A DNA stretch of 63,966 nt, the filler included, from Folioceros fuciformis (taxonomy: Eukaryota): NCBI GenBank assembly GCA_049999805.1. It is 19 parts of 19 records of this genome, joined end to end, with 100 filler letters (N's around TTAATTAATTAA, not from the genome) between each part and the next. Parts side by side here need not be neighbours in the genome. Positions count along the whole stretch, not along the records: positions 1 to 11,780 come from JBNGIO010004715.1; 18 more parts are not named here. The stretch is one strand, 5' to 3'. Positions 98 to 54,781 of the stretch are shown piece after piece. A program made the position numbers and the translations under genes. Below the pieces are notes generated by a model. It worked only from the letters and a program-made list of their open reading frames with translations, did not search any database and had not been told where the DNA came from. Every line of letters begins with the position of its first letter. Within the stretch, counting starts at the first letter, position 1.

Positions 98-969
98 ATG
101 GAGCGTATAGATAGGTGCGCGGCGCTCCTTATAGCATTCCTTTATGCTTCGAGTCTTGTAGTCTGCAAGCTGCTGGGGCGTAAGATTTGCAAGCTCAACA
201 TGGCGTTCTCTCCAGATGGGTCTGGCTCCTCTCCTGCCAAGCGCTGGGTGTATCATCATGACCACTTGGGCAGGTTTGCAAGCACTCCTACTAGAACAGC
301 TGCCTCCACTCCGCGTCAGAGGCAAGCAGAGATGCCAGCTCCTGCTGCGAGAGGTGGAGGGCGGCCAAGAGGAAGACATCGCGGTTCCACCCGCGCTTTT
401 CTAGAGCAGAGGCGCCTGGGAACAATGTCCTCACATACAAATGTTGGTGCTTCTAGCATGGCATCCCCTTGCAGGCCTGCCACGCCTGTGCCAGCAAATG
501 CTAACGATGAGACAAAGATTGTAAGTCTTGGCTCCATCGCCATATCTTGCTCTCCTTTGTGGTACAAGTGTTAGTATACCCGACACAGGATGATTCGGGT
601 GAGGGTTACACGCTGCCGAGAATTCGATGGGCATGTCATCAGCTATTACCGTGAGTGCCAAAACCATTGTCTGTCAGCATCCCTATGAGATTGTTTCTGC
701 CACTTACCCTAATAGCTCCCACTTATTGTGCAGGTTCTGAAACTCGGCTTGAAGAAGAGCATAGTCTTGAGACTAAGGAGCGCATCTCATACACAGAGTG
801 CAAGAGGAGAGATTCCCTTAGGTCTGACGAGACGTTCACCACAGCCTCTGAGCATGATTCGGACTCTTCAGAGCCTGACACTCTTGGAAGTCGAGCAAGC
901 CTACCAGTAGATAGTGAGGAGGAAGACAGTGTGGATTGGGGATGTGACCAGGGCTGGTTAGGTAGCTAG
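98..969 (+). CDS. Putative spliced antisense gene in the Copia 3' region, unknown function
   Basis: ORF 98-574 and ORF 655-969 are joined in frame by intron 651-733 (GTGAGT...CCCTAAT...TGCAG). The TAG at 572-574 is either removed by intron 521-574 (GTAAGT...TAG) or is a nonsense mutation. The final stop overlaps the pol stop in CTAG 966-969. Confidence 0.5.
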
Positions 970-3900
970 TTTGAAGAACTGAGGAAGTCACTTGGCTTCC
1001 CCATGCCCAGACCCTTCATGTGTCTTTCATGTAGCTCCTTTCCCAGGGCTTTTGTCAATACGTCCGCTGGGTTTTCTATCGTTGGAACATACTCTAGCAT
1101 GATATGGCCATCTTTGATTAGGTCCCTTATGAAATGATATTCCACCTCGACGTGCATAGTACGTGAGTGGAACACGGGCTTAGCTGCTAGATTCATCGAA
1201 CCCTGACTGTCAGTCCTAATCATGGTGCAGGTTGGCAAAGGAAGGCCAAGTTCGCTAAAAAGCATTTTGCACCAGGCAATTTCCTTGGAGGCAACTGTAA
1301 GAACCCTGTACTCAGCTTCCGTGCTGGAGAGGGCAACTGTTGGTTGCTTTTTACTCGACCAGCAAACTGGTCCTCTAGCAAACATCACAACATAACCAGA
1401 GACAGATCTCCTACTGTCAATGTCGCCAGCATAATCTGAATCTGTATAGACGTCAATGTCAATGGCAACATCAGGTCTGTATCTGTAGACTATTCCATGC
1501 TGTGCTGTTCCTTTGAGATATCTGAAAACCCGTTTAAGACATGTCCAATGTTCTTGGCCAGGATTTTCAAGGTACTGTGATAGCACACTGGTGGAATAAG
1601 CCACTTCTGGACGTGTTGTGTTTGCTGCATATATGAGCTTTCCAACACCCTGTCGGTAAGGTACTGGGACCATCTTGTCCTTTTCTGTCAGCGTCTGTGG
1701 GCTCATAGATTTACTAAGCTTGAGTCCACTGGGCAAAGGAGTGGACGCAGGTTTCGCGTCCTTCAGTCCAAGTTGTTCAGCACTGTCAAGAAGATATCTA
1801 GGCTGTGTGAGAGTAAGAATTCTTCGCTTCCTATCTCTCTGCATGTGAATTCCTAGACAGCTTTGCAAAGCTCCGAGGTTTGACATCTCAAATTTCTTTG
1901 ACAGCAGGCCATTGATCTTTGTTATAAAGGGAGGACTGTTACAAGCCAGGATAAGATCATCCACGTACACAGCAAGGTAACAGATTGTATCACCAGATCT
2001 GTATACATAGAGGCTACTATCTGAGGTACACTTTACGAAGCCCAAAGCTCGCAGTTCCTCATCAAGGACAGCATTCCATTCCAAAGCAGACTGTTTCAGA
2101 CCATACAAAGTTTTGATTAGGCGTAGGACATGATCCTCCTTGCCCTTAACAACATATCCGGTTGGCTGTTGCATATAAATCTCTGTGTCTAACTTGCCGT
2201 GTAGAAAGGCTGTTTTAACATCAAACATATCAAGCTCATAGTCGTTGTGTGCTGCCACTGCACATAAGATTCTGAATGTGGCAAGCTTGACAACAGGAGC
2301 ATATGTTTCCAGGTAATCCAGTCCTGGTACTTGGGAGAAGCCACGTGCAACAAGCCTAGCTTTGTATCTGTCGAAGGTGCCATCTGCTTTAACCTTCAGC
2401 TTAAAGACCCATTTGCAAGAAACAACCTTGCGTCCAGGAGGTAATTTTGCTAATTCCCAAGTGCCGTTCTTAATGAGACTATCGTACTCAGACTGAATGG
2501 CTTTTTGCCATTCTGCAGCATCTGGCCTACTCAAGGCTTCTTCATAAGAGCGAGGTTCGATAGGTTCCAGATTGGTAGCATGAGCTTGTGCTGATCCTGA
2601 CCTAAAGTCGAGTGATTTATAGTAATCAGGTGCACGTCTGTCCCTTGTAGGATATCTCCGCTCAAGTGGTGGAGGTGGTTCATGCATTTCAGGCTGCTCA
2701 TCTGGTGGTTCGTCGTCATTGTCACTGTCCAGGATGACATCTGCAGCGTCATGTGCGTCGTCATCATCCTCTGGAGCAGGTAGAGGTTGCTGCTGCTGCT
2801 CCGCAAGATCGTCAGCAAAAACATCATCCTCTGCTGGTTCTGGTATCTGATCTTGTGGTTCTTCCCCCCCTGCAGGAGCAACCGCTACAGGAGTTGAGTC
2901 ATCAAACACGGTGACAGGGGGAAGGGTAGACATATCAGCGTCCTCATCATCGGGAAGGGAAGTAGCTCCCACTGTTTTCCAAACACGTCCTTCATCAAAA
3001 GTGACACTGCGGGCATAGATAACCTTCTGCTGAGGGACATCATACAATTTGTAAGCTTTGATTCCCTCAGTATAGCCTAACATAAGGAGTTTTCTGGCCT
3101 TTGCAGAGAGCTTCTTCCTCTTCTCCTTGGGTATAAAGGCGTAGGCGATGCAGCCAAAGGTACGAAGATGCTGGATAGAAGGCTTTCTCCCAAAGAATGC
3201 CTCAAAAGGTGTTTGCCCCATGACAGCAGTGGTGGGTAACCTGTTTCTCAAATAAACAGCTGTCATCAATGCTTCAGCCCAGTAGGGCAGAGGCAGAGAA
3301 GCCTGATGAAGGAGAGATGAAACCATCTCCTGGAGAGTCAAATTCAGGCGTTCGGCAACCCCGTTTTGTTGGGGTGTGTAGACAACAGTTAGCTGCCTTC
3401 CAATGCCCTCCTCTTGACAGAAGGCTTGAAACTCGTTGCTTGTGAATTCGCCTCCATTGTCAGAGCGGAGAGTCTTTAGCTGCTTACCTGTCCATCTTTC
3501 CACATACTTGAAGTAAGACTTGAACAGGGAGAAACAGTCACTTTTGGCCTTCAAAATATAAGCTGTGACGAATCTTGTTTTATCGTCTGTGAAGTTCAGA
3601 AAATACTTGCCACCCCCAAGAGAGGGCTGTGACAAGGGTCCACATATGTCAGTGTGTACAAGTTCTAACACGTCTGATGCTCTGTGTGGTGCCTTGTTTT
3701 TGAAGGCTACTTGGTGACGCTTGGAAAGGACACAAGCTTCACACAAGGGAAGGACAGGTAGAGTGCCAATCTTCCCATCATAGTACAGATCACTACTAGC
3801 TAATTTTTGTAACTTAGCACTGTGTGGGTGACCTAACCTGTTGTGCCACAACATGGCCTTGTTGGCTGGATGTGTAGGATCATCTGAGGTATGTGGTACT

Positions 3901-5333
3901 GTATGGGACTGCACAGGATGACTGTGCAAGTGAAGACGGAAGAGATCGTGATCTGATGAGCCATAAGCTAGAACCTTACGATGGTCAAAGGCATCAACGA
4001 CCTGGCACTCTGTGGAAGTAAACAGTACATGACTGTTGTTGTCCAGATTCAGTTGTCTAAAAGAAATGAGATTTCTCGTCATTTCAGGCACAAAGTAAAC
4101 GTTTGTGAGTGACAACTTAAGCACTGAAGGTACAGGGAGACTCACTGTCCCTTTGCCTGGAGACACGAGTGCTCTGTCATCACCTAGATAGACGAACTGG
4201 TCTTTGACAGGTTTGTATGTGACAAAAGAATTCTTGTCAAAACATATGTGCGCTGTGGCACCTGTGTCTAGATACCATTCATGGAATGGCCTAGAACCTG
4301 CCTTTACAGACAGACATGTGGGGAGGACTAAAGGTTGAGCAAACTTCCTTACCCCTACTGCCAAGGCTGAAGGTGAGGATTGCTTCTTTACAACCACGTG
4401 TGTCTCTGCAGTCGCATTACCCTCCTTGCGAGGTATGCCGGCCTGCTTCTTGTGACACTCATTCTCCCAATGGCCGGGAATTTTGCACCAGTTGCATTTC
4501 CCGGGCTTTTTGGGCTTCTTCTGTGAGGAGGCTCCTTGCGAGCTCCCAGCACCAGGTGTGGTTTGTTTCCCTTTAGAATAGGATTTGCTGCCTCTTCCTT
4601 TATTGTTGGTGTAGAGGGCTTGCTGCTTCCCACGTTTGCTGCCACCTCTTGTGGCTTCCTCCTGAAGCAGTGCTCCCACTAGCTCGGAGAATGTCACAGG
4701 GGGTAACTGAATCTTGGCAGCTGAGGCTAACTTTTGAGTTTGTGCCTGTGATGTGTTGTAGGAGGTCACAAAATTGGACCAAGAGTCAGGCAAGGACAGC
4801 ATCAGGTAGATTGCTAACATGTCCTCCTTCACGTTTTCTTGTGTGGCTGCTTCCAGTTTTGAAACCAAATGCCTGAAAGTCGCCACATGTTTTTCCACTG
4901 AGTCACCTTCTCGCATCTTGCAAAGCTGCAGGTTCCGGAGGGCAGCCATCTGGCTGGTTTGGTTTGCGCCTGAATACAATTCACGGAGCCGAGACCAGAT
5001 GTCAGATGCAGTTTTAGCACCGACGGTGTGCCTCAACATTTCGGTTGTCAGGCCACCCCTTATCAAGTACATGGCTGCGCTGTTCTTAGCTGTCCATGTT
5101 TTGATATCTGCTGTACTACCATCTGTTTCTAATTTCTCTTCTCCTTTGGTGAGCTCCCAGAGTCCTTTATTCTGGAGAGCCCCCTTCATACACATCACCC
5201 AGATGTCATAATTCTCCCCCCCGAACCTGTCCTTTTCCTTGAACATGTCTATGTTAATGTTGATGGACGCTGATGTGGGTTGTGCGACAGGTCCTTCTTG
5301 GTCATCAATATCAATTTCACCATCAATAGCCAT
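966..5333 (-). CDS. Intact Copia gag-pol polyprotein (1455 aa)
   Basis: Gag N-terminus (FGGENYDIW), CCHC knuckle CNWCKIPGHWENEC, protease WYLDTGA, GAG-pre-integrase WHNRLGH, integrase VHTDICGP/LRSDNGGEF/QQNGVAER, RT CKWVFK/YKARLVARG/YVDD, RNase H TDSDYAG/ADVLTK. No stops. Confidence 0.97.
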   Translation of the reverse strand: MAIDGEIDIDDQEGPVAQPTSASININIDMFKEKDRFGGENYDIWVMCMKGALQNKGLWELTKGEEKLETDGSTADIKTWTAKNSAAMYLIRGGLTTEMLRHTVGAKTASDIWSRLRELYSGANQTSQMAALRNLQLCKMREGDSVEKHVATFRHLVSKLEAATQENVKEDMLAIYLMLSLPDSWSNFVTSYNTSQAQTQKLASAAKIQLPPVTFSELVGALLQEEATRGGSKRGKQQALYTNNKGRGSKSYSKGKQTTPGAGSSQGASSQKKPKKPGKCNWCKIPGHWENECHKKQAGIPRKEGNATAETHVVVKKQSSPSALAVGVRKFAQPLVLPTCLSVKAGSRPFHEWYLDTGATAHICFDKNSFVTYKPVKDQFVYLGDDRALVSPGKGTVSLPVPSVLKLSLTNVYFVPEMTRNLISFRQLNLDNNSHVLFTSTECQVVDAFDHRKVLAYGSSDHDLFRLHLHSHPVQSHTVPHTSDDPTHPANKAMLWHNRLGHPHSAKLQKLASSDLYYDGKIGTLPVLPLCEACVLSKRHQVAFKNKAPHRASDVLELVHTDICGPLSQPSLGGGKYFLNFTDDKTRFVTAYILKAKSDCFSLFKSYFKYVERWTGKQLKTLRSDNGGEFTSNEFQAFCQEEGIGRQLTVVYTPQQNGVAERLNLTLQEMVSSLLHQASLPLPYWAEALMTAVYLRNRLPTTAVMGQTPFEAFFGRKPSIQHLRTFGCIAYAFIPKEKRKKLSAKARKLLMLGYTEGIKAYKLYDVPQQKVIYARSVTFDEGRVWKTVGATSLPDDEDADMSTLPPVTVFDDSTPVAVAPAGGEEPQDQIPEPAEDDVFADDLAEQQQQPLPAPEDDDDAHDAADVILDSDNDDEPPDEQPEMHEPPPPLERRYPTRDRRAPDYYKSLDFRSGSAQAHATNLEPIEPRSYEEALSRPDAAEWQKAIQSEYDSLIKNGTWELAKLPPGRKVVSCKWVFKLKVKADGTFDRYKARLVARGFSQVPGLDYLETYAPVVKLATFRILCAVAAHNDYELDMFDVKTAFLHGKLDTEIYMQQPTGYVVKGKEDHVLRLIKTLYGLKQSALEWNAVLDEELRALGFVKCTSDSSLYVYRSGDTICYLAVYVDDLILACNSPPFITKINGLLSKKFEMSNLGALQSCLGIHMQRDRKRRILTLTQPRYLLDSAEQLGLKDAKPASTPLPSGLKLSKSMSPQTLTEKDKMVPVPYRQGVGKLIYAANTTRPEVAYSTSVLSQYLENPGQEHWTCLKRVFRYLKGTAQHGIVYRYRPDVAIDIDVYTDSDYAGDIDSRRSVSGYVVMFARGPVCWSSKKQPTVALSSTEAEYRVLTVASKEIAWCKMLFSELGLPLPTCTMIRTDSQGSMNLAAKPVFHSRTMHVEVEYHFIRDLIKDGHIMLEYVPTIENPADVLTKALGKELHERHMKGLGMGKPSDFLSSSN

Positions 5334-5451
5334 GTTGACAAGTTTTAATGAACACTAATCTGTGAAGTTGTAACCTGTGCTGTGCAGGTTAATCACGATT
5401 AAATGTCTAAGGACAGATGCTTGACAGTGAAAAGAGAAAACAAAACTAGCA

Positions 5452-6185: not shown

Positions 6186-6460
6186 AGATTTGCCAAATCT
6201 GGCAGTTGTTCTAGTGGACCTCTATCAAATTTGCTAGACAGCAATTCTGACTAGAGATTCACTAGAGCAGACTCCAGATCTAGCTGATCTGCCTAGAAAA
6301 TTTCAAGAAAATTTCTAAACATTTCTTTTCTTGATGTTCCTTCTTTTCTTAATTAAAAATATGATTTCTAATCAAGAACAAGTAAAAGGAACATTATAAT
6401 GCATAGAAATTTATGCTCTATTAAATGTGCATTCTTTTGAATGCAATTTGCATCAGAGAC

Positions 6461-6790: not shown

Positions 6791-8315
6791 GCTGTTTGAT
6801 CCTGGGTATGAGCCTCAAAGTTATCAAGAGGCGCTCTCTGGCCTAATGCTATTCATTGGAAGGCTGCTATCAAGTTGGAATATGACTTCTTGGTTTCTAT
6901 TCATACCTGGGAGCTTTGTAGACCTCCTCAGGGGAGGAAGATTGTCACCTCTAAGAAGGTCTTCAAGCTTAAACATCGGGCTGATGGCTCCATTGCTTGG
7001 TATAAGGCTTGATTGGTTCAACCTTGGACTCGGGGTTTTTTCCCAAGTCCCCGGCCTGGACTATCATGACACCATTTCACCTGTCGTGAAAGGTCATTCA
7101 CTTCAGTTGTTGGTTGCCCTGTCGACGTTCTTTGCTCTCATCATCCACCAGATGGATGTGAAAACAACATTCCTTCATGGCAAGTTATAAGAAGGCATAC
7201 ATGCAGCAGCTTGAAGGACATGAAATTTCTGGCAAACAAGATTGGTATCAATGCATAGATGAATTACTTGACTTGGGCTTTATAAAGTCTTTAGCAGACT
7301 CTAATGTTTACAGGATGCAAGACAAGTCTGGTTTTCTCACTCTTGCTCTTTATGTTGATGATTGTATCCTCCTTGGCACTGATATGTCAAGTATACAAAA
7401 GGTTAAAACCCTTTTATCAGACAGGTTTGATATGGTAGACATTGGTGAGCTATCATATTGCTTGGGCACTCAATTGTTAAGTAACCCAGATACAGGCACT
7501 ACTATCATTCATCAAGAAAAATACATCCTTGATATGTTGTATAGGTATAAATTATTAGATACCAAACCTGCTGCAACCCCCATGGAGGCAGGTTGTAAAT
7601 TGTTGAAGGATCAATCTCCTCAGACCCCTGTTAATATAGAAGAGATGAAGTCCATACCATATTCACAAGCTATTGGTTCGTTGATTTTCTGTTCTAACCA
7701 CACAAGGCCTAATATTTCTCTTCCAATTAGTATGGCTTCATAGTTTTTGAAAGAGCCACGACAGGCTCACTGGTTTGCAGCAAAACAAATCCTCAGGTAT
7801 CTTAAGGGAACAAGCAAATATGGAATTCATTATTCAAGACAAGCTTTTGATGGTCAACCTCTTACCCTTGTGGGTTATTGTTATGCCGATTGGGCATTGA
7901 CCTTGAGACAAGAGGGTTTGTCTCTGCTTATGCTTTCATGCAACACGGTCTGCGCCTAACGGTCGTATTCCATGAAGCCCGTTTGGCGCACTTTTGAATG
8001 TACACCATCCTAGTCACATATCCACATTTAAGCTGTTTTTTTTAAAAACATATTGGTTGGAGATGTTGTGGACACCATACATAATAAAAAATGTCTAAAC
8101 CAACTCAATCCAACTGAGACATAAAGTACAAAACCGATTAAATTTTGCCTAAAAACCAAATCCTCTTTCAAGTGCTCCGGTTTACTGGCGCATTAAACAT
8201 TGTGGTTCACTAAAAAGAACCTGGCTATGTGCATGCTATGAATAAAAAACCTTTACCAGTCACTTTTAAATAAAGGCATATTGTACCACAAACTGCAAGT
8301 ATTTTCGAATCTTGT

Positions 8316-9531
8316 CTATATCAAGTCATGTACGTCTTGGATGGCCTTAGAATCAACAACTATCTCTACATCCTTCAAGCGGTGGCCCTCTGTGTCGCCG
8401 AAGTCGTCTCCTTCCACCTCAAGAACCAAGAAATGAGGATCGTCCACTGTCTGAGGTGGAAGCGTGCCATTCTCATCCCAAATGGTCATTGCATACAGAT
8501 CTTCCGCTGGTCTGTCATCTGAGTGAGTAATAACTTAACCTTTCTTCCCCAGCAAACTATACACCTGCATCCGCCGATCCACGCTACCGTCGGTGCAAAC
8601 TTCTTTAGCCCAAAATTTTGTGGGCCCATGAGAGAACGGGTCTGTGCTAATTTCTTCATCAACGTCTGGCAAAGAACCAAGGCCATTCACTCTCTGCATC
8701 ATGTATGTCGTGCATCGTATATCAATGTCCATCGCAATAACATGCCTCCCCCTCTGAATAGCAGCCGGAAGGAACGATCCGGATCCTGCGCAAGCATCCA
8801 CTACCCAATCTCCTTCAACCGAAAACATGTTCACCAGCATTCCCATTAACCCCAACAGCTTCTGATATGGGGAGACAACCATCGAATCGGCCGAGTGAAA
8901 AAGATGTTTTTTCACAACAGTTTCATGCCTTATCACTCTCGGCAGAAGAAATCCCTCATTCGAAAATAAGGCTGCTTTGGTGGTATGAGCTTCCGAGTGG
9001 ACTGCACTTCCAATTGTCAGGTACTCCATAGTCTCTACTGCCCCTGCATTCGGAGGAATGTTGGTCTTTTCCCAAACCAATGTCTGTATGGTGCCTTTCT
9101 TGCACCATGGCCTAAGTGCCTCTCTCACCTGTGAGATGAGGTCAACCCCATGCATGAGGACCGCTCGATAAACATTGCTACTTGTGCATTGTGAAAACCC
9201 CTTGATAATGTCTTCAAGGTCCTGGCTAGTCAACTGCCTGTCATAATCATGTCGTTGGAGACCACGAGGCAAATCAGCGAACAATAGGGTATAAGGTCTC
9301 CTTACCAGAAATCTGCTCATCTCCAGAACGCTTCTCTACATCACTTGATATTTCGTTTTTTGGTTGCTGTTGGGGACTCTGAACTCTGACAAACCAGCAT
9401 CCATATCGGCGTCCGCTAGTTTTTGCTTCTCCTCTTCTAACCATTTCCAGTTCCTTGCTGGGTACACGTAATTCTGGAACGGCTTGGGCAACGATTCCAG
9501 GTCGTTTATATCTGCAGGTTTCTGCCAACAA
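8316..9531 (-). pseudogene. Beta-class amino (N4-C/N6-A) DNA methyltransferase, N6_N4_Mtase-like, disrupted
   Basis: Motif IV position LLFADLPRG (DPPY-like), then VWEKxN, motif X PYQK..L...LVNMFS.EGD, motif I VVDACAGSGS and GRHVIAMDID, in beta order. In-frame TAA at 8535-8537 is followed by a 72-aa acidic tail ending at 8316. Frameshift near 9325 joins ORF 9274-9531. Confidence 0.82.
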
Positions 9532-9571
9532 ATATCTTCGTCAGCAAACTATGTTACTTTCATTAGTCGAA

Positions 9572-9831
9572 GTGGTTGGAGTGCGCTGGTCGACCGGTGC
9601 ACTCCAACCACCTAACCACAGAAGTTGGACAATTCGGAGGTTGGCTTGGCTAGTAGCTGGAGTGTGTCGGTAGACCGGTGCACTCCCCCTATTTCGCATC
9701 CTTCAGTTTTTCTTGTGACTGCGCATTGTTGGGTGTGCGTCGGTATACCGTCGCACTACTTCCACTCCTTCTCATGAAATGTAGGACTGACTGCTTTGTG
9801 GCAGGTGTGCGCCGGTCTACCGGCGCACACC
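9572..9831. repeat. Cluster of CG-rich palindromes GTGCGCCGGT-NN-ACCGGCGCAC
   Basis: Copies at about 9572-9611 (about 40 bp near-perfect), 9659-9686, 9732-9759 and 9804-9831; further copies at about 8171, 10357-10412 and 40716. Confidence 0.85.
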
Positions 9832-9889
9832 CACCAGTTCACACACTTTTTCCTTATTCTCGTGTGTAGGTCTTTGCTGTTTTTTGTAG

Positions 9890-10320
9890 AGGGCTTTGAA
9901 TATGACTTGAAGCTCCATTGAAATAAGCTGAAGGCAGAGCGCGAGAAGAGTATCAAACATTGGGTCAAATATTATGGTGACCCCGGAAAGTACATTGGAA
10001 TATCAGTGGATGGTATGGATCAACAGAAGACTCAGTTGCCCCATTTCGTACGATCACCCAAAGATTTGGCTGATGTTGGCCTCATTGATGTCCATGTAGT
10101 AGGGTGTATGGTATACAACAAGACTTTGACATCAAAGCTCTTCATCGAGTTCGGCAACATTCGAAACGATGGGAACTTAATAATATCAATTATTCAGCGC
10201 GTGATTCACAAGTACGAAGGCTTGCTTCCTGGAGTGCTATATTTGCAGCTAGACAACACAGCACGGGAGAGCAAAAACGTGTTGCTGTTTTCTTATTTGA
10301 ATATGTTAGTGGAAAAGCGG
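9890..10320 (+). pseudogene. Sola-like (DUF7869-type) DDD transposase fragment
   Basis: H*NKLKAERE...DPGKYIGISVDGMDQQKTQLPHF...LYLQLDNTARESKN...LVEK. The DGMDQ and LQLDN motifs carry the first two catalytic Asp. Truncated at both ends. Confidence 0.7.
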
Positions 10321-11420
10321 GCCAGACCAGAATGAGCAAGCTTCTATCCTTAGCTTGCGCACTTCTGACCGGCGCACTTCTGATGTCTTCACGCCGGTAG
10401 ATCGGCGCACTCCTACCGTCCAGGGTTAAATGAGCAATATTGAAAAAGCTTTAACATTTTACAATTTCAAGTAATTCCAATTTCAAAAAATATCATTCCG
10501 TCTACATGCAGGCGGTAGTGTCAGACCAACCGTGGAACTAGAGAAGATTAAAAAGTTATACTGTTGGTAACCCGCAATTTCAGCTAGTTTCTGGGTAAAC
10601 ATGACGAATAGAAAGTTTAGCATGACCGTTTTTCCATAGATTTGGGGGTAATCTACACCAAATAGCATGATTTCTGAATATGAGCCACGGAAAATGACGC
10701 AGAAAATAACCTGAAGCCCGATTTGGCGCAATACGACCATTAAGCGCAGACGCTCTTATGTTTGTTGTGGTGGCATAGTAACCTGGTCATTAAAGAAACA
10801 ACCGACTATTTCACTATCTTCGACTGAGCTTGAATATGCAGCCCTTACACAAGCAGCTAAGGAGGGTATATGGCTATGCTGGTTGCTTAAGGATTTAGGA
10901 CAGGAGCAAATGCAACCGACTAAGATCTTCTGTGACAACCAGTTGGGCTCTTACACTTGCTTAAAATCCCGTTTTTCATGCCTGCACTAAGCATGTTGAA
11001 GTGCATCACCATTTTATCAGAGATGCTGTGGCAACCAATCAAATCGAGCTAGAATATATTGCAACAGATGCAAATCCAGCTAATATTTTGACAAAAGTAT
11101 TGGGCAGAGTGAAACTTTACCTGTTTTGTGATTCTCTTGGAGTGAAGGACTCCAATCAAACAGTTCCCTCAAGTGTTTGAGTTTTATCATGCAGTCATTG
11201 TTTAGTTGTCCTAAGCAACAACAAGGGAAGTTTGACATGGCTACTTTAAGAGGTATCTGAGTCAAAAAATGACTCACTGACGAACCTACTCCTCTCAACT
11301 CTTCTACGTTCTAGAATTTCTATGAAGTTAGGGTCGAAGCTGTGCATAATTTCGTCATTGTCTTCATCTTCAGATCCATACTCAATTCCCGCTTCTTCAT
11401 ATAGCTTTAATTTAAACACT

Positions 11421-11780
11421 TGTGAACCTCCAAAGTTTGGGGTAGTAGTTTGTTTTGGTTGAAAAAGGGTTAATAGTGGTATGGTTTGGTTTTCTTTTTC
11501 AACTTATTTTCCCTAATTTTCCTTGATTTTCTGGTCATTTTTCCTATTTTTCTTTGTGCTAATTAGGTTAATTGACCAGGAAATAGTTGGTTTAGTTATA
11601 AGAGTGGGTATAGGTTTGGTCCCAGACCTGGGAAGGTTTAGGTTCGGTACCAGGCCATAGGGTTGGGTGATTTAGTTTAATATTAATTAAAGATATATAT
11701 AATATTAAATGATTAAATAATAATATAATGATGAAAATAATAAAATAATGGTTTGAACATAGGAACAGGTATCTGGGTAT
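11421..11780 (+). repeat. High-copy dispersed repeat (LTR-like, begins TGTGAACC), copy 1
   Basis: Near-identical to 30201-30569 and 61738-62109; two of the three copies end at assembly gaps at the same point. Confidence 0.8.
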
Positions 11781-11880
11781 NNNNNNNNNNNNNNNNNNNN
11801 NNNNNNNNNNNNNNNNNNNNNNNNTTAATTAATTAANNNNNNNNNNNNNNNNNNNNNNNNNNNNNNNNNNNNNNNNNNNN
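11781..11880. other. Artificial contig spacer N-TTAATTAATTAA-N (first of about 19)
   Basis: Same six-frame-stop linker flanked by Ns at about 18781, 22029, 27908, 30570, 32560, 41912, 43977, 45435, 46800, 49294, 53229, 54682, 57037, 58366, 59964, 61603 and 62824. Confidence 0.97.
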
Positions 11881-14014: not shown

Positions 14015-15453
14015 TCACTTCATTCTTCTAGTGCGAAGTCTCCTATTAAATTTTGATATACAACCAAGTTTTGAGCTTGGCTTGTAGGTTGGATCCATTA
14101 CATAATCATCACCACTTGAATTGCTTTCCAAATTGCTTTGTAAATCATACATCCTTTTTCTTTTGCTACATTGTATCCTTTTGTTGACCACCCTTTTCTT
14201 GTCCTTGCAAGGAATGTAGGTTGGATCCGTTTCAGAATCTTTAACACTTGCAATACATTTTGAGCTTGGCTTGTACGTTGGATCCCTTACAAAATCATCA
14301 TCACTTGAAACACTTTCAGGACCGCTGTATAAATCATTGATTGGTTTTCTAAGCATCAGTTGTCTTCTAGTAGATTTCATTGTTTTATTGGCTAGTTGTT
14401 CCTCCTTCTTGCATGGCATGTATTTCATTACATTGTGATAGAAAACTATTTTTAGTTCTTCATCATGTAGATTTTCAAAATGAAATTTCATATCAATAAC
14501 TTTTGATGAACATGAAAATTTGACACTGTTTTACAATTACCAAAAAAAGGATGTCCTAAAGCTTGCTTTGCGGTTATTCTATCTTGGGGTTGGAAAGAGA
14601 GGAGTTGTTTAAGTAATGACAAAGCTAGGGGATCGGCTTTCGGAAATTGAAATTCAAAAGAACTTTTAAGGTGCTTTGTCGACATCTCATCTTCAGCTTC
14701 AAAAAAGCTTTCAATAATATTAAGTTGTTTTTCATTTCCCATAGAAGAATCTCCTTCAAACAAAATTCCTCGTTGTAATATTTCAGCAAAGATGCATCCT
14801 ATGCTCCATATGTCAATGGCTGAAGCGTAGTATTTTGTACCATCTGTACAAATCTCTGGAGCACGGTAACATTCAGTTACAATATCATAGATAAAATTTT
14901 CCTGGTGGATGAAATTTCTCGGTGGAATTAATCGAGCTAACCCAAAATCACATATTTTAAGCACACCTTGAGAGTTTAGTAGTATATTTTCAGGCTTCAA
15001 GTCTCTATGAACAATATTTGCTTCATGTAAATAATCTACAGCTTGAAGAATTTGCTGCATCAAATATCGTTGTTTCTCAAGAGGAAACTCGTCAACATCT
15101 TGTAACTCTTGTGATAAATCATGATCCATCAACTCCGTGATAATATAAACTTCATCTACGTTTTCTATTTCTATTGGTGGAAAAATTATTTCTTCTAGTT
15201 TGATGATATTTGGATGGTGGAGCATTTGGAGCAATATTATCTCTCGCAAAATAGGAATTATCGTGCAACGAGACCAATTCTTGAAATTGATATTTTTAAT
15301 AGCCACGCTTTCATCTGTCCTTAAATCTGTTGCTGCACAAACTTTTCCATAAACTCCTCTTCCTTTAATTTTAGTCAGAAGATATCGAGATTGTGTGTCA
15401 TATTTCCAAAAGTACGAGTTAACGTCACCTGGTAAATCCTTTTCCTGATACAT
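14015..15453 (-). pseudogene. Intronless, diverged group-D (TDY-type) MAP kinase derivative, split by a frameshift/ATGA overlap at 14488-14491
   Basis: GRGVYGKV, VAIK, LREI, HRDLKPEN, DFGLAR, YRAPEIC, AIDIWSIGCIFAE and FPKADPLALSLL. The next ORF begins KFHFE...ELKIVFYHNVMKY, resembling the group-D MAPK EFEFE...ELIYREILEY tail. No TxY (NFIYDIVT). Confidence 0.75.
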
Positions 15454-15934
15454 GTCGCAATATACTAATTTAAATCTTTTTTTCTTCTTCTAATCTTAAG
15501 ATGTTGAGTTCCTCAACATAAAATGAACATGTTCCTTTCTATGCCTTAACAATAGTAGCACTGAAGGTCTAATAGATGCCTATACACGAAAAGGCATTAA
15601 AAGAAGAACGAGGATCTCATGAAGTGTATTAGAATCCTTGAATTTTCTCGCCCATGACTTTAAGGAGCTTAGATGTTTTCTTCCATCTCGAGCTCTAGAT
15701 CCTTTTCTTGGTTGCATGTGTAAGGAAAATATTAAGTCCCAAGTTTTATGCATTAAAAGTGGAAAACAATCTATTCATATATAGCCTTGGGCATAGCTAT
15801 TTTAGAATATGGGGAAACATTTATCTCGATCTTAACATTATCTCATATAGTTTTAGGATATATATCCTACATAGCTCTAGGATATATATTTCTAGGCTCC
15901 ATATAGGACGTAGAAACAGACATTTCTTTGATCT

Positions 15935-18780: not shown

Positions 18781-18880
18781 NNNNNNNNNNNNNNNNNNNN
18801 NNNNNNNNNNNNNNNNNNNNNNNNTTAATTAATTAANNNNNNNNNNNNNNNNNNNNNNNNNNNNNNNNNNNNNNNNNNNN

Positions 18881-21800
18881 TGGAGGTGGAGTTTCTACCA
18901 ACTGCAGCAGATGTCTGGACACAACTACATGATACATATCAAGTAAGGAATATATTGACTCTTGTTGCTGCTAGGAATGAATTCTATGGACTAAGAATGA
19001 AGGAGGGAGATACAATGAGTGCTCACATTACCCGCTTCCGCTACTTGAGACAACAAATTGTTCAGCTTGGTGGAACTGTATCTGATATAGACACAGTTGC
19101 ACAATTGTTGTCCAGTCTTCCTTCCTCCTATCAAAACTTTGTGGCCACACAGAATGTAGCCTTGCGCACCTCTGTTGCCACAGTTAAAGCAGGTGGTGCT
19201 GCCACCCTCACTTTCAATGAGCTAGTGGGAGCTCTCCATCAAGAGGAGCAGACTCGCCATCGGCCTTCTGGTTCTACAAAGGTTAGAACAGAGAAAGTGT
19301 TAGTTGCAATGAAGAAGCCTTTTGGGAAGGGGAAGGGTAAGGGTAAGAAAACCCCACCTGGAAATCCCAAAAGGCAAGGCAACTATAATTGGTGTCAGCT
19401 CCCTGGCCACTAGGAAAGAGAGTGCCGTAAGAAGAAATCAGGAGAAGCTCGCAAGGAGCCAAAACTTGAAGCTCATGTTGCTGAAAGAGGCAACAAATCT
19501 TCTAGTACCCAAAGTGCTCAAAAGAGCAGCTCAACAGTGTTGACTGTCTGCTTCACTTCAACAAGAGAGCATCCCTCTCTTTGGTTCATTGACTCAGGGG
19601 CGACCTCACATGTGTGTAACAATCGCCACCTGTTCACTACCTTCATTAGACAGTCATTCCCACAGTCAGTGTATGTGGGAGATTCACGTGCTGTGAAGGT
19701 ACTAGGAAGTGGAACAGTAAGTGTACCTATCTCTAGTTCACTCTTGAATTGCTAGATGTACTTTATGTTCCTAACATGTCAAAGAACCTGTTGTCAATTA
19801 GAGCACTTACACAAATGTCAGAGTTTGCTTTTCGCTTTGAGAAGGACTCCTGCTGTTTGTATAGCATAACACAACCTAGAGTGTGTTTAGCTAGAGGGTT
19901 ACTTAAGAATGATCTCTATCAGCTTTCAGTGGGAGATCATAGTCCAGCTGTGAATGTTGCTACATCTAAGTCTCTAGCAAATCTATGGCATGCTAGACTT
20001 GGACATGTAAATAAGGTCAAGCTAGACTTAATGTCCACAGGTGACTATTATAAAGAAAAGTTACCTTAATGCTTTAAGCACCTTCTAGTCTGCAAGTCAT
20101 GTGTACTCTCTAAACAAAAGGAGCTTCCTTTCAAGAACAAAAATGCTACAAGAGCTGATTGCGTTCTAGGATTGATTCACATGGACATTGCTGGGAAGAT
20201 ACAGGTACCTTCGCTAGGAGGAGCGGAGTACTACTTAACCTTGACTGATGATTTCAGTAGATACACTTGGACCTTTCCTCTTAAACAGAAAAGTGATGCT
20301 TTTGACAAGATATCATCCTGGATACCTATGGTACAAAGGCAAACTGGAAAGTTAGTCAAGTGTATGAGATCAGATAATGGAGGTGAATTTGTAGGTCACA
20401 AATATGACTCCCTATTTGATCAGTTTGGAATCACAAGGCAATTTTCCATACCATATACGCAACAGCAAAATGGTGTGGCAGAACGCAAGAACCAAACACT
20501 TATGGGAATGACTTGAAGCATGCTTTCATGGGCAGGACTTTCAAAGCGTTTCTGGGCTGAGGCCATAGTCACAGCAACTTACATTCTAAATAGAGTGTTG
20601 ACAAAGTCCGTGCCTGATAAAACTCCCTATGAATCATTCTGGGGAAGAAAACCAAGCTTGCTTCACCTAAGAGTTTTTGGTTCCCCTGCATTTGCCTTTA
20701 TTCCTCAACAGAAACGCAGGAAGTTAGGTGATAGGGCAAAGGCTCTAATTTTCCTAGGCTATTCTGAAGAATCTAAGGCATATAAATTATTTGACTCCAA
20801 TACTTCAGCTATTACCTTAGCTAGGAGTGTGACATTTGAAGAGTTGTCTTCACCACGTCCTGAAGCTTCAACATCTGTAGAAGATGCTCATGAAGACCTG
20901 TCTTATTCAGAAGATGGCTCAAATATACAACAGCATTTTAATCAAATACAAGATGAAGATGCTGAGGGTGACCTTGACCCTAATCAGTTTGCTGAATTTC
21001 CTTTATCTGATGGGGAGGAAGTGGTTGCTGAAAATACAGATGTTCATGAAGCCTTTGAGGAGAATTTACCACAAGTTGAAGGAGCTGATGATCCTTTTGA
21101 GGATGAAGGGTCAGTAGCCTCTCAACATTCTACACACAGTACAGCTGAAATTGTGCCAGAGGTCTTACCTCAAGTTCCACTAGCCCAAATCCAGGATCAA
21201 CCTCGTTATCCTATGAGAGAGAGGCGTACACGTGAGAATTGGTTAGAGAAACCATATGAATCAGTTGATTTCAGACAGGCCCATATTGCTGAAATATATG
21301 TACCTGACGTGAGACCTGACCCCCAATCCTATTCAAAGGCTATCAATGGCCCTGATGGTGATAAGTGGCGAATCTCCATTGATGATGAATTTAATTCCTT
21401 AGTAAAAAACAACACACCGTAAGCCAATCAGCTGTAAATGGGTTTTTAAAACAAAGCTCAAATCAGATGGCACAGTTGCACGTTACAAATCAAGACTTGT
21501 AGCGAGAGGGTTTAGTCAAATACCTGGTTTGGATTATGGTGATACCTTCTCACCTGTTGTTAAACCCCCATCTGTTAGAATTCTCCTTGCTATGGCAGCT
21601 GAATATAACTTGGAAGTTCACCAAATGGACGTGTGTACCGCTTTTCTTCATGGAGAGCTTGAAGAAACCCTGTACATGCAACAGCCAGAGGGGTTTGTTA
21701 GTAAGAAATATCCAAATAAAGTATGTAAGCTACTTAAAACTATTTATGGATTAAAGCAAAGTCCTCAAGCTTGCTATAAACGAATTGTGAAATACCTTCA

Positions 21801-22028
21801 GAAGCTTGGCTTTGTACAGACACCTGCAGACTCCAATGTTTTCTTCTTTTCAGAAGACAGCAAGTTTGTTATATTAGCCCTGTATGTGGATGATGCCATC
21901 CTTGTTACTAACAATATGATTTTACTATCTAAAGTCAACGACATGCTGAGGGCAGAGTTTGAGATGACTGACCAAGGTGAGCTGCAATATTGCTTGGGTA
22001 TTCAAATTCTGAGACATCGTGACAAGGG
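18881..22028 (+). pseudogene. Decayed Copia gag-PR-IN-RT
   Basis: WFIDSGA, WHARLGH, MRSDNGGEF, QNGVAER, HQMDV and YVDD, with stops and frameshifts. Confidence 0.93.
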
Positions 22029-25954: not shown

Positions 25955-27907
25955 TTAGCGAGGAGTGACGTCCACCTGGGTGCCGCTGAGAAGGACATTC
26001 GTGGATGGCTCGGAGTCGGTCCCGGGAGCTCCATGATCAGGAGTCTGCTTGTAGTGATAGCTATGAACGCCGGAGTCTACGCTTACATTCTCTGCAAAAG
26101 CCCAGGGCATGGTGTGCCACATGTCCTCCAGATCGCGCACAACCTCCAGAATGGTCGGCCTCCCGTCAGGGTTGTCAAGGCAACAAGCCAGAGCCAGGCG
26201 CGCCATCGGCTCGAACATCTGTGCCGGGTACTCCGCCAGACAAGGATCCAGAACCGACCCTAACGTCCCAGCCTGGTAAGCCGCCTTCACCTCCCGCACA
26301 ATGTTCTTCCCCTGAGTGATGGGATGCATGCCCGTCACCAGCTCCAACAGCACCACCCCGAAGCTGTAAACATCGCTCTTGTCAGTCAGCTTGTGCGTGA
26401 GAAAATACTCGGGATCCAAATACCCCGGCGTCCCCTTCACCACCGTCGACACATGCCCGGGGCCCGATCCCTCCTGCTCCGGCGCCGGCGCCAGCTTCGA
26501 CAGCCCGAAATCCGCAACCTTAGCATTCCGCTTTCCGTCCAGCAGAATGTTGCTAGCCTTGATGTCTCTGTGGAAAATCGGCGGGCTCGCCTCGTTGTGC
26601 AGGTACGCAATCCCCCGTGCGCTCCCCAGCGCAATTCGCAGTCGCGTCGGGAAATCCAGCTCTGGCACCCCGCCATGCGACGCCGCGCTCAGATTATCCC
26701 GCAGCGTCCCCCCTTGCATGTACTCGTACACCAGCATCTGCTCCCCTTTGTCATCGCAGTACCCTATCAACCCTACCAGATTCCGGTGATGCACCCGCGA
26801 CAAGAGCTCGATTTCGGTGTAGAACTCCCGACTCCCTTGCAAACTCCCCTCCTCCGCCCGCTTGATCGCCACCGACACCACCCTCGTCTTCGTAACCCTA
26901 ACATTCTCCCCCTCGGCGCCATCCTTCCCTCCGCCGCCTTGACCATCTCGATGCGGTCTCACTTGCGCTTGACCTTTTTCATCTTTCGCTCTCACCAAGC
27001 ACTCAGCAGCATTCTCATCCTGCTCCTGGTGATGCCCATGCAACCCTGATACATCATCCGGAACCTCTATCTCCAACTCTCCTCGAAACACCTTCCCGTA
27101 CCCGCCCTGCCCGAGCTTCCGATCATCGCTGAAGTAGTCGGTAGCCACACAGAGCTCGTCGAAGGTGAACTCCCGCACCCCGGAGATGTTGAGCTTGTAC
27201 TGGCTCCCAAACCCTGACTCTCTCCTCCTCCTGGTGAGGAGGACCCGCTGAAGCGCGGGCGGGACCTTCTTGTTCCGGAAGAACCACAACCCCACGAGCC
27301 CGACCACCACGGCCGTCACCGCCACAGCCCCGACCACGATCCCAACCACAGCGCCCGCGCTGAGCCCGCCGCCTTTGGCCCCCGCCGTCCCGTTCTGGCT
27401 CGCGTAGTACCCGGCGTCCCAGTCGATGAACTCGTAAGGCCCGAACCAGGCATTGTCCGGGAGCTTCCAGTTGGAGAAGACGAAGAGCAGGCTATTCACC
27501 TGCTCCATGGTGAAGAACTGGTGTTCCGGCCCGCTCGGGAAGAGCTGCAGATCCAGCCGGAGCCGAGGCCCCGGCTCCCACGTGAAATCCCGCACCGCCA
27601 CCTGGTCCCATGACAGCGGGACGGTGTTGTTGGTGGCCTCGGAGATGGCGGCCGCGAAGTAGATGGTGTAATTGGTGCGGAACGGCGCGAAGATGGTGAA
27701 GCCCGGGGATTTGAGGCGCTGCACCACCGAGACCGGGTAGAGGCAGCTGCAGATGTCGTTGACGAGCTGCGGGGCAGAAAACTTGGCGGGGCACTCGATG
27801 CCGAGGCAGTCGGGCGCCGCTTCCCCGTGATTCACCGCGCCTTCCAGGTCGCTTTCATCCTCGCCTCTGGGAGTGCATTCGGTAAACCTGGAGGCCGTGA
27901 TCGGGCA
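25955..27907 (-). CDS. Receptor-like Ser/Thr kinase, LRR-VIII-1-like; 5' end lost at gap
   Basis: Juxtamembrane ectodomain CSC...RLKSPGF...WEPGPRL...FGPYE, TM helix, kinase LGQGGYGKV, HRDIKASN, DFGLS and VKGTPGYLDPEY. The frame stays open to the gap; no introns seen. Confidence 0.92.
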   Translation of the reverse strand, partial: CPITASRFTECTPRGEDESDLEGAVNHGEAAPDCLGIECPAKFSAPQLVNDICSCLYPVSVVQRLKSPGFTIFAPFRTNYTIYFAAAISEATNNTVPLSWDQVAVRDFTWEPGPRLRLDLQLFPSGPEHQFFTMEQVNSLLFVFSNWKLPDNAWFGPYEFIDWDAGYYASQNGTAGAKGGGLSAGAVVGIVVGAVAVTAVVVGLVGLWFFRNKKVPPALQRVLLTRRRRESGFGSQYKLNISGVREFTFDELCVATDYFSDDRKLGQGGYGKVFRGELEIEVPDDVSGLHGHHQEQDENAAECLVRAKDEKGQAQVRPHRDGQGGGGKDGAEGENVRVTKTRVVSVAIKRAEEGSLQGSREFYTEIELLSRVHHRNLVGLIGYCDDKGEQMLVYEYMQGGTLRDNLSAASHGGVPELDFPTRLRIALGSARGIAYLHNEASPPIFHRDIKASNILLDGKRNAKVADFGLSKLAPAPEQEGSGPGHVSTVVKGTPGYLDPEYFLTHKLTDKSDVYSFGVVLLELVTGMHPITQGKNIVREVKAAYQAGTLGSVLDPCLAEYPAQMFEPMARLALACCLDNPDGRPTILEVVRDLEDMWHTMPWAFAENVSVDSGVHSYHYKQTPDHGAPGTDSEPSTNVLLSGTQVDVTPR

Positions 27908-28007
27908 NNNNNNNNNNNNNNNNNNNNNNNNNNNNNNNNNNNNNNNNNNNNTTAATTAATTAANNNNNNNNNNNNNNNNNNNNNNNNNNNNNNNNNNNNN
28001 NNNNNNN

Positions 28008-34723: not shown

Positions 34724-35390
34724 GACATCCACCACCGCTTCCGCTTCACCTTTGCTCTCATACCACGTATATCACCGCCTAGCTAATGTGACCTCTTTCG
34801 GCGCCCTACTGCCGACTCCCAACGAGGTGGAAATCTGCACTAGGGCTAGGGCTCGAATTAGGGCTAGGGTTCCGTTGAGAGTTCACATTCAACAACTGCG
34901 GCGTTCCCGCCATGAGGATGTAGTGCAGCGCGAACTGAAGGAACCCTGTGTATATAAGCTTCCGCTCGGAAATGTATGGAATTGAAGTGTGTCTGCACAG
35001 TTGGTCACTCTGAACCCGACATCAGGGTCCCAGAGCCTGTAACTGCCGCTTGACGAACTCGGCCAATTTGCACCTATCTGGTACTTCCATTCGTTGGATG
35101 AGTTTGAAGCGTATCGACGTCGGCTTCGAAGGATACGCTGTTCTGAAGAGCGGACGTTAAGTGAAGGGATGGACATTTTTCAGAGGCTTTGGGGGTAGCT
35201 GATGGCAGAAGCATGTGATCGAAGTACCTGACGTATCGCCTAGGGACGCGGGGGCTTCAGAGAAGAGGCGGGTAGTCCAGGGAAAGCTTAGACTTGTGGT
35301 GCTCAATTCTCAGGCTAGCTGGATTGCAGAGGTCGCTAGGAGAAGGTTGGAAGAGTTGTCTGTGCTGGTGAGCAATGCCTGCCGTAGAAC

Positions 35391-38300: not shown

Positions 38301-38528
38301 GCCGTGAGGCTAGACAGACAGGACGCTGCAGCATACGTCTTGATGTCAAACATATACACGAGAGCTGACATGTGGGAGCAGGCATTTGAAATGCACTCGA
38401 GGAGGAAAGGGGCCGGAGCATGGAAGCAGCCAGGCCAGAGCTGGTGGACAGACATGGACGGACTGGTGCATAGTTTCCTGGTAGGGTGTAGGAAGCATAA
38501 TCTGCGAGGCTGGAGGAGCGTTGTATGA
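35391..38528 (+). CDS. PLS-class PPR RNA-editing factor with E1/E2 and truncated WW-type E+/DYW start; true start codon uncertain
   Basis: Repeated LVNMYAKCGSLEDA/VVTWNAMISGY/VTFVCLLQAC triplets, HYTCMIDLLGRAG, AYVLMSNIY and KQPGQSWWTDMDGLVHSF; no HxE/CxxC deaminase. Confidence 0.92.
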   Translation: MLSSVSRYALRAKVDMETAMCAIGARELGSSFRLDSGDSRHAAFAPGFSSMHRGRGRVVAGSCSDPSKPNAWGNMCCCITSPCSACEPLARDECSWSWSFYRNAAPFRQWLMGRRERPELVWWQVSLCHALRWYSRQRKKSSRSLASSCRKSKKSSYVDSFYKPGGVDQPLAAVYVHMGLAPIADGLPGPSGHKRGKAFESVGKRCHELQLIEAVETMGTLVEMGYRASQSLLFTVMRRCVVERDLVLGRRVHALTVKSGLGSDPYLCNHILRMYASHSRLKEAMDVFAGVVSPDAFMWSSIISAHVKHGHDKQAIQLYHRMRRLNVKPDGHVFVAALQACARGTDLLAGKQVHADVLATGVQPDCFVCSCLVEMYAKCGSLAEAQMVFDGLREKNVVTWTSLISGFCQEGMSQEALHLYSAMQNEGISVPNAATFVSLLQACANVGAPALEEGKQIHAQLNDQELKVDNVIGGSLINMYAKCGSLEDAQKVFDGLGEKSTVTCTAMIAGYLKCGCVDDAQALFDRFPQKDVVMWNTMIAGYSQQGMGLEALSLYSVMQEEANSVPTSVTFVCLLQACTVVGLSALETGKQLHAQIGERGLQTDLGVACSLVNMYAKCGSIEDARRVFDSLPLKNVVTWNAMISGYSQQGMSENAFHVHSTMQEEGIAIPDAVTFVCLLQACASEGIASLGKGQQLHAQIRERGFQADLFVANSLVNMYAKCGSLEDAQRVFDGLGRKNVVTWTAMIAGYAQQGMGVEALRLYRAMQEEGIVAPDPVTYVYLLQACANVAALHLGKQLHAQIEEQCLLADVLVAVSLIDMYVKSGSMVEADQVFEALPERGVIAWNSLIAGYTCQGDSEVVFDLFHRMRDEGIWPASGTFVSVLTVCSHAGLVDEGQQFFEDMSRDYGIVPKLEHYTCMIDLLGRAGQLDEALALVRTMTVQPDVAIWHTLLGACLKWNNWKMGRLSFDEAVRLDRQDAAAYVLMSNIYTRADMWEQAFEMHSRRKGAGAWKQPGQSWWTDMDGLVHSFLVGCRKHNLRGWRSVV

Positions 38529-43976: not shown

Positions 43977-44076
43977 NNNNNNNNNNNNNNNNNNNNNNNN
44001 NNNNNNNNNNNNNNNNNNNNTTAATTAATTAANNNNNNNNNNNNNNNNNNNNNNNNNNNNNNNNNNNNNNNNNNNN

Positions 44077-54681: not shown

Positions 54682-54781
54682 NNNNNNNNNNNNNNNNNNN
54701 NNNNNNNNNNNNNNNNNNNNNNNNNTTAATTAATTAANNNNNNNNNNNNNNNNNNNNNNNNNNNNNNNNNNNNNNNNNNNN

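Follow-up and report, generated by a model that had tools for sequence, protein, structure and literature searches.

A dead DUF7869 transposon in a streptophyte Copia element with a divergent beta-class DNA methyltransferase gene as likely long-standing cargo

The closest described counterpart of the locus analyzed here is Sola1-1_Ec32, a DNA transposon of 21.5 kb from Ectocarpus that has, opposite its transposase gene, a gene for a protein of 1104 amino acids that combines a ParB-like part with a DNA methyltransferase; the enzyme is predicted to form N4-methylcytosine (4mC) or N6-methyladenine (6mA), and the authors propose, in the accessible part of their report, that it binds the very element by which it is encoded and modifies this DNA (PMC12477816). 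For the red alga Bostrychia, the available text on Plavaka transposons describes the accessory genes PAG2 (PF01555 with SET) and PAG3 (ParB-like with 2OG oxygenase), which are flanked by tandem inverted-repeat arrays and move among Plavaka, Mutator, Zisupton, and Fanzor elements, and it cites TET/JBP genes that are carried by KDZ/Plavaka transposons of basidiomycetes (bioRxiv 10.1101/2025.02.11.637652). Here we describe a 2.8-kb element at positions 7942–10757 of a 63,966-base stretch of DNA from the Folioceros fuciformis assembly GCA_049999805.1 (the whole stretch is called the window in the following). The element is bounded by inverted repeats, interrupts the pol gene of a Copia element, and contains the remnant of a DUF7869 transposase gene and, divergent to it, a pseudogene of a beta-class DNA amino-methyltransferase. 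We consider it likely that this is a dead, internally deleted DUF7869 transposon, probably of the Sola1 type, which sits in the RNase H part of a streptophyte Copia element and whose methyltransferase gene was long-standing cargo that would have marked the element's own DNA. An earlier note on this DNA, made from the sequence alone, had implied that such an association was new, which does not hold, as transposon-borne genes for PF01555 or for ParB-like/methyltransferase proteins are already known from brown, red, and green algae, as far as the accessible text of these reports goes. The kind is thus known, and what is new is its occurrence in the streptophytes, in a short form and with the DLPRG motif.

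As far as the published description of Sola1-1_Ec32 allows a comparison, both are DNA transposons with a prokaryote-type methyltransferase gene opposite the transposase gene, and a metagenomic locus that we term L025 has exactly this arrangement with a DUF7869 transposase. The window copy has the gene opposite the transposase within one pair of inverted repeats and has inverted-repeat arrays beside the gene (four units at 9571–9831; six in L025), but an N-terminal ParB-like domain is absent. It differs further in being only 2.8 kb long, deleted, and dead, in its DLPRG motif, and in its streptophyte host. With the Plavaka PAG2/PAG3 system, as outlined in the available text, the locus shares a PF01555 methyltransferase as conserved cargo and inverted-repeat arrays alongside, whereas the Plavaka elements have an EnSpm/CACTA transposase, a methyltransferase that is fused to SET, ParB on another protein, and a giant size of 17–19 kb. 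The basidiomycete TET/JBP genes, judged from their citation there, are similar in being DNA-modifying enzymes that are conserved cargo of DNA transposons, but these are oxygenases that act on 5-methylcytosine (5mC), and transposase group as well as host kingdom are different.

Anatomy of the inserted element

The core inverted repeats of the element, 7948–7969 and 10730–10751, are identical in 20 of 22 bases, and with up to 3 mismatches the core repeat has only these 2 matches in the window, with 0 expected (100 shuffles). The repeats can be extended to 28 nt with 23 identical bases, which gives a left terminal inverted repeat (TIR) at 7942–7969 (plus strand) and a right TIR at 10730–10757 (minus strand). 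Logan contigs of the organism, which come from one sample (runs X1, X2, and X3) and were aligned to 7400–11300, independently back the left end, as 17 X1 and 13 X2 contigs match from 7942 inward and are unlike the sequence before that position. With lengths of 150–1000 bases, these contigs are too short for joining the genes to the ends. On the left, the element is flanked by a decayed Copia pol gene from the reverse transcriptase to the RNase H part (6792–7941, plus strand), and the RNase H part of the same gene continues on the right (10758–11180, plus strand). The two flanks align to residues 1060–1290 and 1328–1384 of the polyprotein that is encoded by an apparently intact Copia element at 966–5354, and as they are collinear with it, the insert splits the RNase H part of pol.

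With 7942 and 10757 taken as the ends of the element, the sequences ATGC on the left (7938–7941) and ATGT on the right (10758–10761) are a possible 4-bp target-site duplication, in which 3 of 4 bases agree in the only complete copy of the element; a short (4-bp) duplication has been reported for Sola2 (PMC3627910). No duplication directly flanks the 22-nt core repeats, and no paralogous empty Copia site was found in the window. Two other lines of evidence for a duplication were rejected. Contigs that join the flanks have joints (7897>10820 and 7599>10844) that are too imprecise, and the flanks joined with one ATGY copy give no restored Copia frame, so that the frame argument was dropped.

The transposase remnant (137 amino acids; 9922–10332, plus strand) faces away from the methyltransferase gene and matches the profile PF25273 (DUF7869) with an E-value of 3.1e-18 and 66.5 bits (cut-off 26). 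Five longer relatives with 456–586 amino acids and 51–59% identity, all of which match PF25273 at 1e-49 to 1e-53, carry DGMDQKKT, LYLQLDNTARENKN, and GHTHDQIDQMFS. The remnant retains the first two acidic motifs (DGMDQ and LQLDN), and the third one, which is GHTHDQID in the relatives, is deleted. The N-terminal region and everything beyond about position 10321 are missing. As other Logan contigs run on past 10321 as ...FLKIKVGFL, just like the full-length relatives, the window copy has been deleted at this point. At the N-terminus, the full transposases of the metagenomic loci L001 and L025 have 400–600 amino acids more than the window copy. The transposase family profile had no match among solved structures, and in a scan of viral contigs with the transposase alignment, none of the 49 pattern matches was confirmed as a relative. 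Our analysis suggests that the DUF7869 transposase probably belongs to the Sola1 group. "Sola-like" had also been the wording of the earlier note, and it agrees, as a parallel from the literature only, with the accessible description of the Sola1 element, in which the same kind of accessory gene likewise lies opposite the transposase gene (PMC12477816). A literature search for "DUF7869" found no paper.

Between the divergent genes lies an array of four palindromic units (9571–9831) with the 22-nt consensus GTGCGCCGGT-CT-ACCGGCGCAC and a spacing of 72–81 bp. With up to 3 mismatches, this palindrome occurs in the window only inside the two copies of the element described below, and 0 occurrences are expected. 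Two further units follow past the deletion junction (10360–10417, with units at 10367–10381 and 10392–10417), and a degenerate unit is present in the left subterminal region (8172–8193), where the second copy has a perfect palindrome (40718–40739); at positions 8182 and 8193, 8 and 9 X1 contigs, respectively, carry the consensus base, unlike copy 1. A subterminal 17-nt motif that ends with GGCGCA and corresponds to half of the palindrome (7974–7990, plus strand) recurs in the same orientation at 10714–10731, with one extra base, and in the second copy at 40528–40544, and half-sites thereby adjoin both terminal repeats of copy 1. Tandem Repeats Finder did not pick up an array in 7900–10800, given the wide spacing and the divergence of the palindromes. 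Logan contigs link palindrome units directly to one another, for example 9828 to 10392 and 9603 to 10391, and the units are therefore breakpoints of deletion derivatives. In addition, the summed contig depth has a peak at 10282–10412 (4311 in X1 and 2323 in X2, about 10 times the rest of the element), and it seems that the palindrome-bearing stretch past the deletion junction is part of a far more abundant short derivative or a miniature inverted-repeat transposable element.

These palindromes bear on the question whether the methyltransferase gene and the transposase remnant belong together at all, as they could come from different elements that were nested or recombined and thus be neighbors by accident. 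Inverted palindrome units surround the remnant (9800–9825 and 10392–10417), the contigs with the two joints mentioned above skip it, and the second copy breaks off short of the transposase region, all of which would agree with a composite locus. However, each of the two copies has this same palindrome in its left subterminal region, and a half-site adjoins either TIR, so that the palindromes are the element's own. Furthermore, the contig depth is similar across both genes, and the same divergent gene pair is found in L025 and, according to the accessible description, in Sola1-1_Ec32. We thus regard a composite origin as improbable and continue with a single transposon that contained both genes. 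The anatomy that the earlier note had outlined, a TIR-bounded 2.8-kb insert in a Copia RNase H frame with a transposase remnant (DGMDQ...LQLDN) on the plus strand and a divergent methyltransferase open reading frame on the minus strand, is thus correct.

The methyltransferase and its relatives

The methyltransferase pseudogene (8316–9548, minus strand) contains motif IV (DLPRG) near 9260–9274 and motif I (AGSGS) near 8776–8790, and it reads FADLPRG, then SPYQKLLGLMGMLVNMFSVEGDWVVDACAGSGS. The motif order is permuted, with motif IV before motif I (D21-x-P23 precedes G184-S-G186), and two in-frame stops interrupt the frame (TAG 9336–9338 and TAA 8535–8537). Direct repeats of 18 nt that agree in 16 bases (8543–8560 and 9535–9552) flank the methyltransferase core, one at each in-frame boundary, and this may be due to chance or be the trace of a rearrangement. 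The core of 266 amino acids matches PF01555 (N6_N4_Mtase) with an E-value of 1.2e-6 and 29.1 bits (curated cut-off 26.7), but this match spans the C-terminal third of the profile only, whereas relatives cover the profile end to end, such as P0009 with 8.7e-13 and profile positions 3–218 of 221. A family profile, made from an alignment of 17 sequences including the window protein, was compared with solved structures and matched a DpnA-like enzyme (3.3e-13), CcrM (5e-11), MboIIA (6.6e-11), and RsrI (5.7e-10), and the N4-cytosine enzymes scored below these adenine enzymes (1e-7 and 6e-4). The AlphaFold (AF2) model of the methyltransferase had a pLDDT of 85.7 and a pTM of 0.84, and Foldseek found CcrM with 6.8e-15, with beta-class DNA amino-methyltransferases at all of the listed top 32 ranks; the best matches were CcrM, M.BceJIV, TTHA0409, MboIIA, the rotifer N4CMT (8s9o, 3.5e-11), RsrI, HpyAVI, and PvuII. 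As the matches of profile, AF2 model, and Foldseek search all are beta-class enzymes, the modeled fold together with the motif order confirms that the window protein is a beta-class N6_N4 amino-methyltransferase. The profile and structure comparisons that the earlier note had proposed, to PF01555, DUF7869, and Rossmann-type amino-methyltransferases, thus all gave the anticipated matches.

Bacterial and phage enzymes such as CcrM, M.MboIIA, M.RsrI, M1.HpyAVI/DpnA-like, and M.BceJIV resemble the window protein in fold, motif order, Q-K-P, and D-x-x-x-G-S-G, but the identity is only 15–19%, they have DPPY where the window protein has D-L-P-R, and the window gene is located in a eukaryotic transposon without a restriction partner. 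The Marchantia MpDN4MT1 and the N4CMT of bdelloid rotifers, two domesticated N4-cytosine methyltransferases, are likewise eukaryotic PF01555-type enzymes, and the N4CMT structure is among the fold matches. These are host genes, however, and they have a serine in motif IV (TSPPY in DN4MT1), which the accessible text of Iyer et al. (2016; PMC4738411) ties to N4-cytosine methylation, whereas the window protein has an aspartate and its family has D-x-P-Y/R. The family profile also scores lower with the N4-cytosine type (1e-7) than with adenine enzymes (1e-11 to 1e-13). The link to DN4MT1 and N4CMT that had been drawn initially is therefore not supported, and the aspartate in motif IV together with the better profile scores to adenine enzymes would favor N6-adenine as the target of the wider family. 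Iyer et al. also list eukaryotic adenine methyltransferase clades, and in the accessible text a streptophyte transposon clade is not among them (PMC4738411).

When 1.84 billion representatives were searched exhaustively with HMMER, relatives of the methyltransferase were detected in the number of 127 at E-values up to 1e-3, 22 at up to 1e-10, and 2 at up to 1e-30, with the best one at 8.4e-36 and 39% identity. A word-indexed protein search at near lengths gave no match, and the lineage is therefore poorly sampled. Named relatives are four proteins of Chara braunii, Gb_37443 of Ginkgo, and one protein of Riccia sorocarpa. The tree comprised 28 rows, namely the window protein and 27 of 28 relatives that were hand-picked from the 127 matches, and the Riccia row was left out as its domain match is partial. 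In this tree, the window protein groups with P0001–P0003 (support 100/97), which are short proteins of 288–446 amino acids, the sister is a Ginkgo-containing clade (98/94), and the Chara clade is outside. These relationships also matter for the question whether bacterial or phage DNA, as a contamination or a very recent transfer, was misread as plant DNA. The language-model neighbors of the protein are indeed phage and bacterial PF01555 clusters, but the element interrupts a Copia pol gene on one and the same contig, it is multi-copy in the reads of the organism, and its sequence relatives include the Chara, Ginkgo, and Riccia proteins, and a contamination is thus refuted by the context. Instead, the methyltransferase gene appears to be a member of a eukaryotic, transposon-associated radiation, the longer members of which would have a ParB-like DNA-binding part in front.

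The best view of such a longer member comes from an unrelated metagenome contig, L025, one of 73 DUF7869 loci that were obtained when metagenome contigs were scanned with the alignment of the transposases. In L025, the features are ordered and oriented as in the window, with a methyltransferase gene on the minus strand, palindromes, and a DUF7869 transposase gene on the plus strand, and both proteins have about 30% identity to their window counterparts. The methyltransferase domain contains DPPY, and its reading frame, the second one of the locus, matches PF01555 with 7.1e-14. The region in front of this domain was modeled with a pLDDT of 80, and its fold matches Noc (2.1e-4), ParB (7bnr, 3.5e-4), KorB, Spo0J, and sulfiredoxin. 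This ParB-like part of L025 was detected by the fold search only; in the long forms, it had no Pfam match at E-values up to 0.01 and no sequence-profile match to solved structures at E-values up to 1. The intergenic region of L025 contains six copies of a different 16-nt palindrome within 650 bp (3750–4397). The same palindrome also occurs at 1065–1080, 1168–1183, 6341–6356, and 311–326, and it thereby coincides with the interruptions of the methyltransferase and transposase frames (breaks at 1062–1084 and 6392/6393), as if introns bore the repeat of the element.

Copies, selection, and the role of the cargo

A second, truncated copy is present at 40503–41632 (plus strand), with the left repeat, the subterminal region with the intact palindrome, and a methyltransferase frame on the minus strand (40863–41632), of which the 3' two thirds are present and which is disrupted by stops and by deletions of 9 nt and 2 nt. 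It has the same end, gene order, and gene orientation as copy 1, with 78.6% DNA identity and protein identities of 85% and 80% over two stretches. Copy 2 ends abruptly at 41632 and is followed by unrelated sequence (TGTAGAGG...) through 41911, inside a 1.7-kb contig, and this break is probably another insertion or an assembly join. Both window copies are dead, as had already been noted, with stops in copy 1 and deletions, stops, and the truncation in copy 2. The stop TAG at 9336–9338 is private to copy 1, as 4 of 4 X1 and 5 of 5 X2 contigs that cover 9338 have CAG. The summed Logan contig depth is in the hundreds over 7924–10805 as compared with 6–91 in the flanks, and single positions of the element are covered by up to 21 contigs. 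The transposon family therefore is multi-copy in the organism. No RNA data set turned up for the element.

Over 251 codons, the two methyltransferase genes have a dN/dS of 0.106 (bootstrap 0.065–0.154) with a dS of 0.78 and a dN of 0.083, and they differ at 23, 16, and 88 first, second, and third codon positions, respectively. The non-coding left region is 72% identical. With such a dN/dS at this dS, most of the divergence arose under purifying selection, while the gene was attached to the same end. Together with the same gene pair in L025, this supports the earlier claim that the methyltransferase is cargo of the family. Gene-fragment capture, as by Pack-TYPE elements, is frequent among plant DNA transposons, and one may thus think of a methyltransferase fragment of the host or of foreign origin that a non-autonomous element acquired on a single occasion and that has no role for the transposon. 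Such a capture is very improbable, as the selection acted over a long divergence on a gene linked to the same end, the gene contains the complete domain and no intron debris, and the family is linked to transposases elsewhere, namely in L025 and, as described in the accessible text, in Sola1-1_Ec32. Moreover, no close cellular homolog was detected, with no match in the word-indexed search at near lengths and 39% identity of the best relative overall.

Selection on the gene does not by itself specify what the protein did. In the alignment of 17 sequences, L17, D21, P23, W88, Q158, and K159 are invariant and G184 and G186 near-invariant. Motif IV is D-L-P-R-G in the window protein and its three closest relatives P0001–P0003, whereas in the remaining 13 of 17 members D-x-P is followed by Y, H, or S, in most cases as D-[IFA]-P-Y. 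The canonical motif IV, (D/N/S)-P-P-(Y/F/W), is thus present in L025 but not in the window protein. It is possible, though on balance not likely, that the proteins of the DLPRG subclade, in which an arginine replaces the aromatic residue (tyrosine) of motif IV, do not methylate and were kept as DNA-binding or regulatory accessory proteins, similar to inactive partners among MT-A70 enzymes. Purifying selection shows function rather than catalysis, and the accessible text of Iyer et al. notes inactive METTL14-type and DIRS1 methyltransferase domains (PMC4738411). On the other hand, D21, P23, W88, Q158, K159, and the AGSGS loop for binding of S-adenosylmethionine are retained, and the model predicts a complete and confident methyltransferase fold.

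We therefore return to an active enzyme in the transposon family as the preferred reading. The methyltransferase may act on the element's own DNA and set a mark there, with the palindromes as the likeliest sites; this is suggested by the shared layout of gene, array, and gene, by the ParB-like tether in long forms, and by the proposal that has been published for Sola1-1_Ec32. Such a mark could tune the binding of the transposase or the timing of transposition, in the way in which Dam methylation tunes Tn10 and IS10 transposition, or, alternatively, it could counter silencing by the host. In its most extended form, this would mean that streptophyte transposons of the DUF7869/Sola1 type write their own 6mA or 4mC on palindrome arrays and ends, either for readability by the transposase or as a shield against silencing by CpG methylation, and that the DLPRG subclade represents a retargeted enzyme without ParB tether. 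This extended form is speculative and, in our judgment, unlikely to hold as a whole. It would fit the CpG retention in the element, as CpG in the two element copies is at 0.77 of expectation (153 observed, 199.8 expected), compared with 0.39 (264 observed, 676.1 expected) in seven pooled Copia segments (966–5354, 6800–7941, 10758–11700, 20517–22028, 42012–44000, 46900–48802, and 49400–51336), which range from 0.21 to 0.54; the left Copia flank of the element (6792–7941) has 0.21. GpC is at 1.0 in both, and the difference in CpG has an odds ratio of 1.99 (Fisher's test, p = 1.6e-7), but the youth of the family could explain the higher CpG equally well.

Several points weigh against a functional transposon family with a self-marking enzyme as we describe it. 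No full-length copy was seen in the Logan contigs and the window, and only one copy has both genes within one TIR pair. The target-site duplication is ambiguous (ATGC vs. ATGT), the remnant is bracketed by palindrome units and skipped by some contigs, and the name Sola1 is based on a parallel in the literature rather than on sequence comparison. Besides the non-canonical motif IV, the near-invariant proline of QKP is a leucine in copy 1, and judging from these residues, catalysis in the DLPRG subclade is therefore doubtful. The ParB-like part is not present in copy 1, where the methyltransferase frame extends to 9548 and the array of palindromes follows from 9571 on. Finally, by the family hidden Markov model and tblastn, a methyltransferase is present in only 1 of the 73 metagenomic DUF7869 loci, which is L025; in only 7 of the 73, the contig extends upstream from the match by at least 4 kb, and most loci are therefore uninformative.

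Host setting and meaning of the locus

The window consists of short contigs that are chained by recurrent N44-TTAATTAATTAA-N44 blocks, whose spacer has stops in all frames. These blocks are found at 11781–11880 and 18 more places, such as 18781–18880 and 41912–42011, and the neighborhood across them is therefore not real. Copy 1 of the transposon is wholly within the first contig (1–11780), where the decayed Copia element that hosts it adjoins the apparently intact one, an uninterrupted gag-pol frame of 1462 amino acids on the minus strand. Host genes in the window point to a land plant. These are long frames with PLS-type pentatricopeptide repeats (35388–38528, plus strand; 53281–54729, minus strand), a receptor-like kinase frame (25955–27955), and a further kinase frame (14488–15489), and a 5'-deoxynucleotidase frame is likewise host-like, with 53–57% identity to named land-plant proteins. 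In run X3, differences of the types C>T (115) and G>A (202) are in strong surplus when compared with X1 and X2 of the same sample, as expected for a converted (bisulfite-like) or damaged library.

Literature searches on land plants or on the Pfam family found no methyltransferase cargo of transposons in land plants, and the accessible reports place transposon-borne DNA methyltransferases so far in brown, red, and green algae. The locus described here, together with the relatives in Chara, Ginkgo, and Riccia, now indicates that methyltransferase cargo has lived in transposons of streptophytes under strong purifying selection. As both window copies are dead, the locus is a pointer rather than an experimental object, but it points to plant systems in which self-marking, the timing of transposition, and the escape from 5mC silencing could be addressed in functional tests. 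For annotators, it is a caution that plant genes with a "DNA methylase N-4/N-6 domain" may be transposon genes rather than part of the epigenetic machinery of the host.

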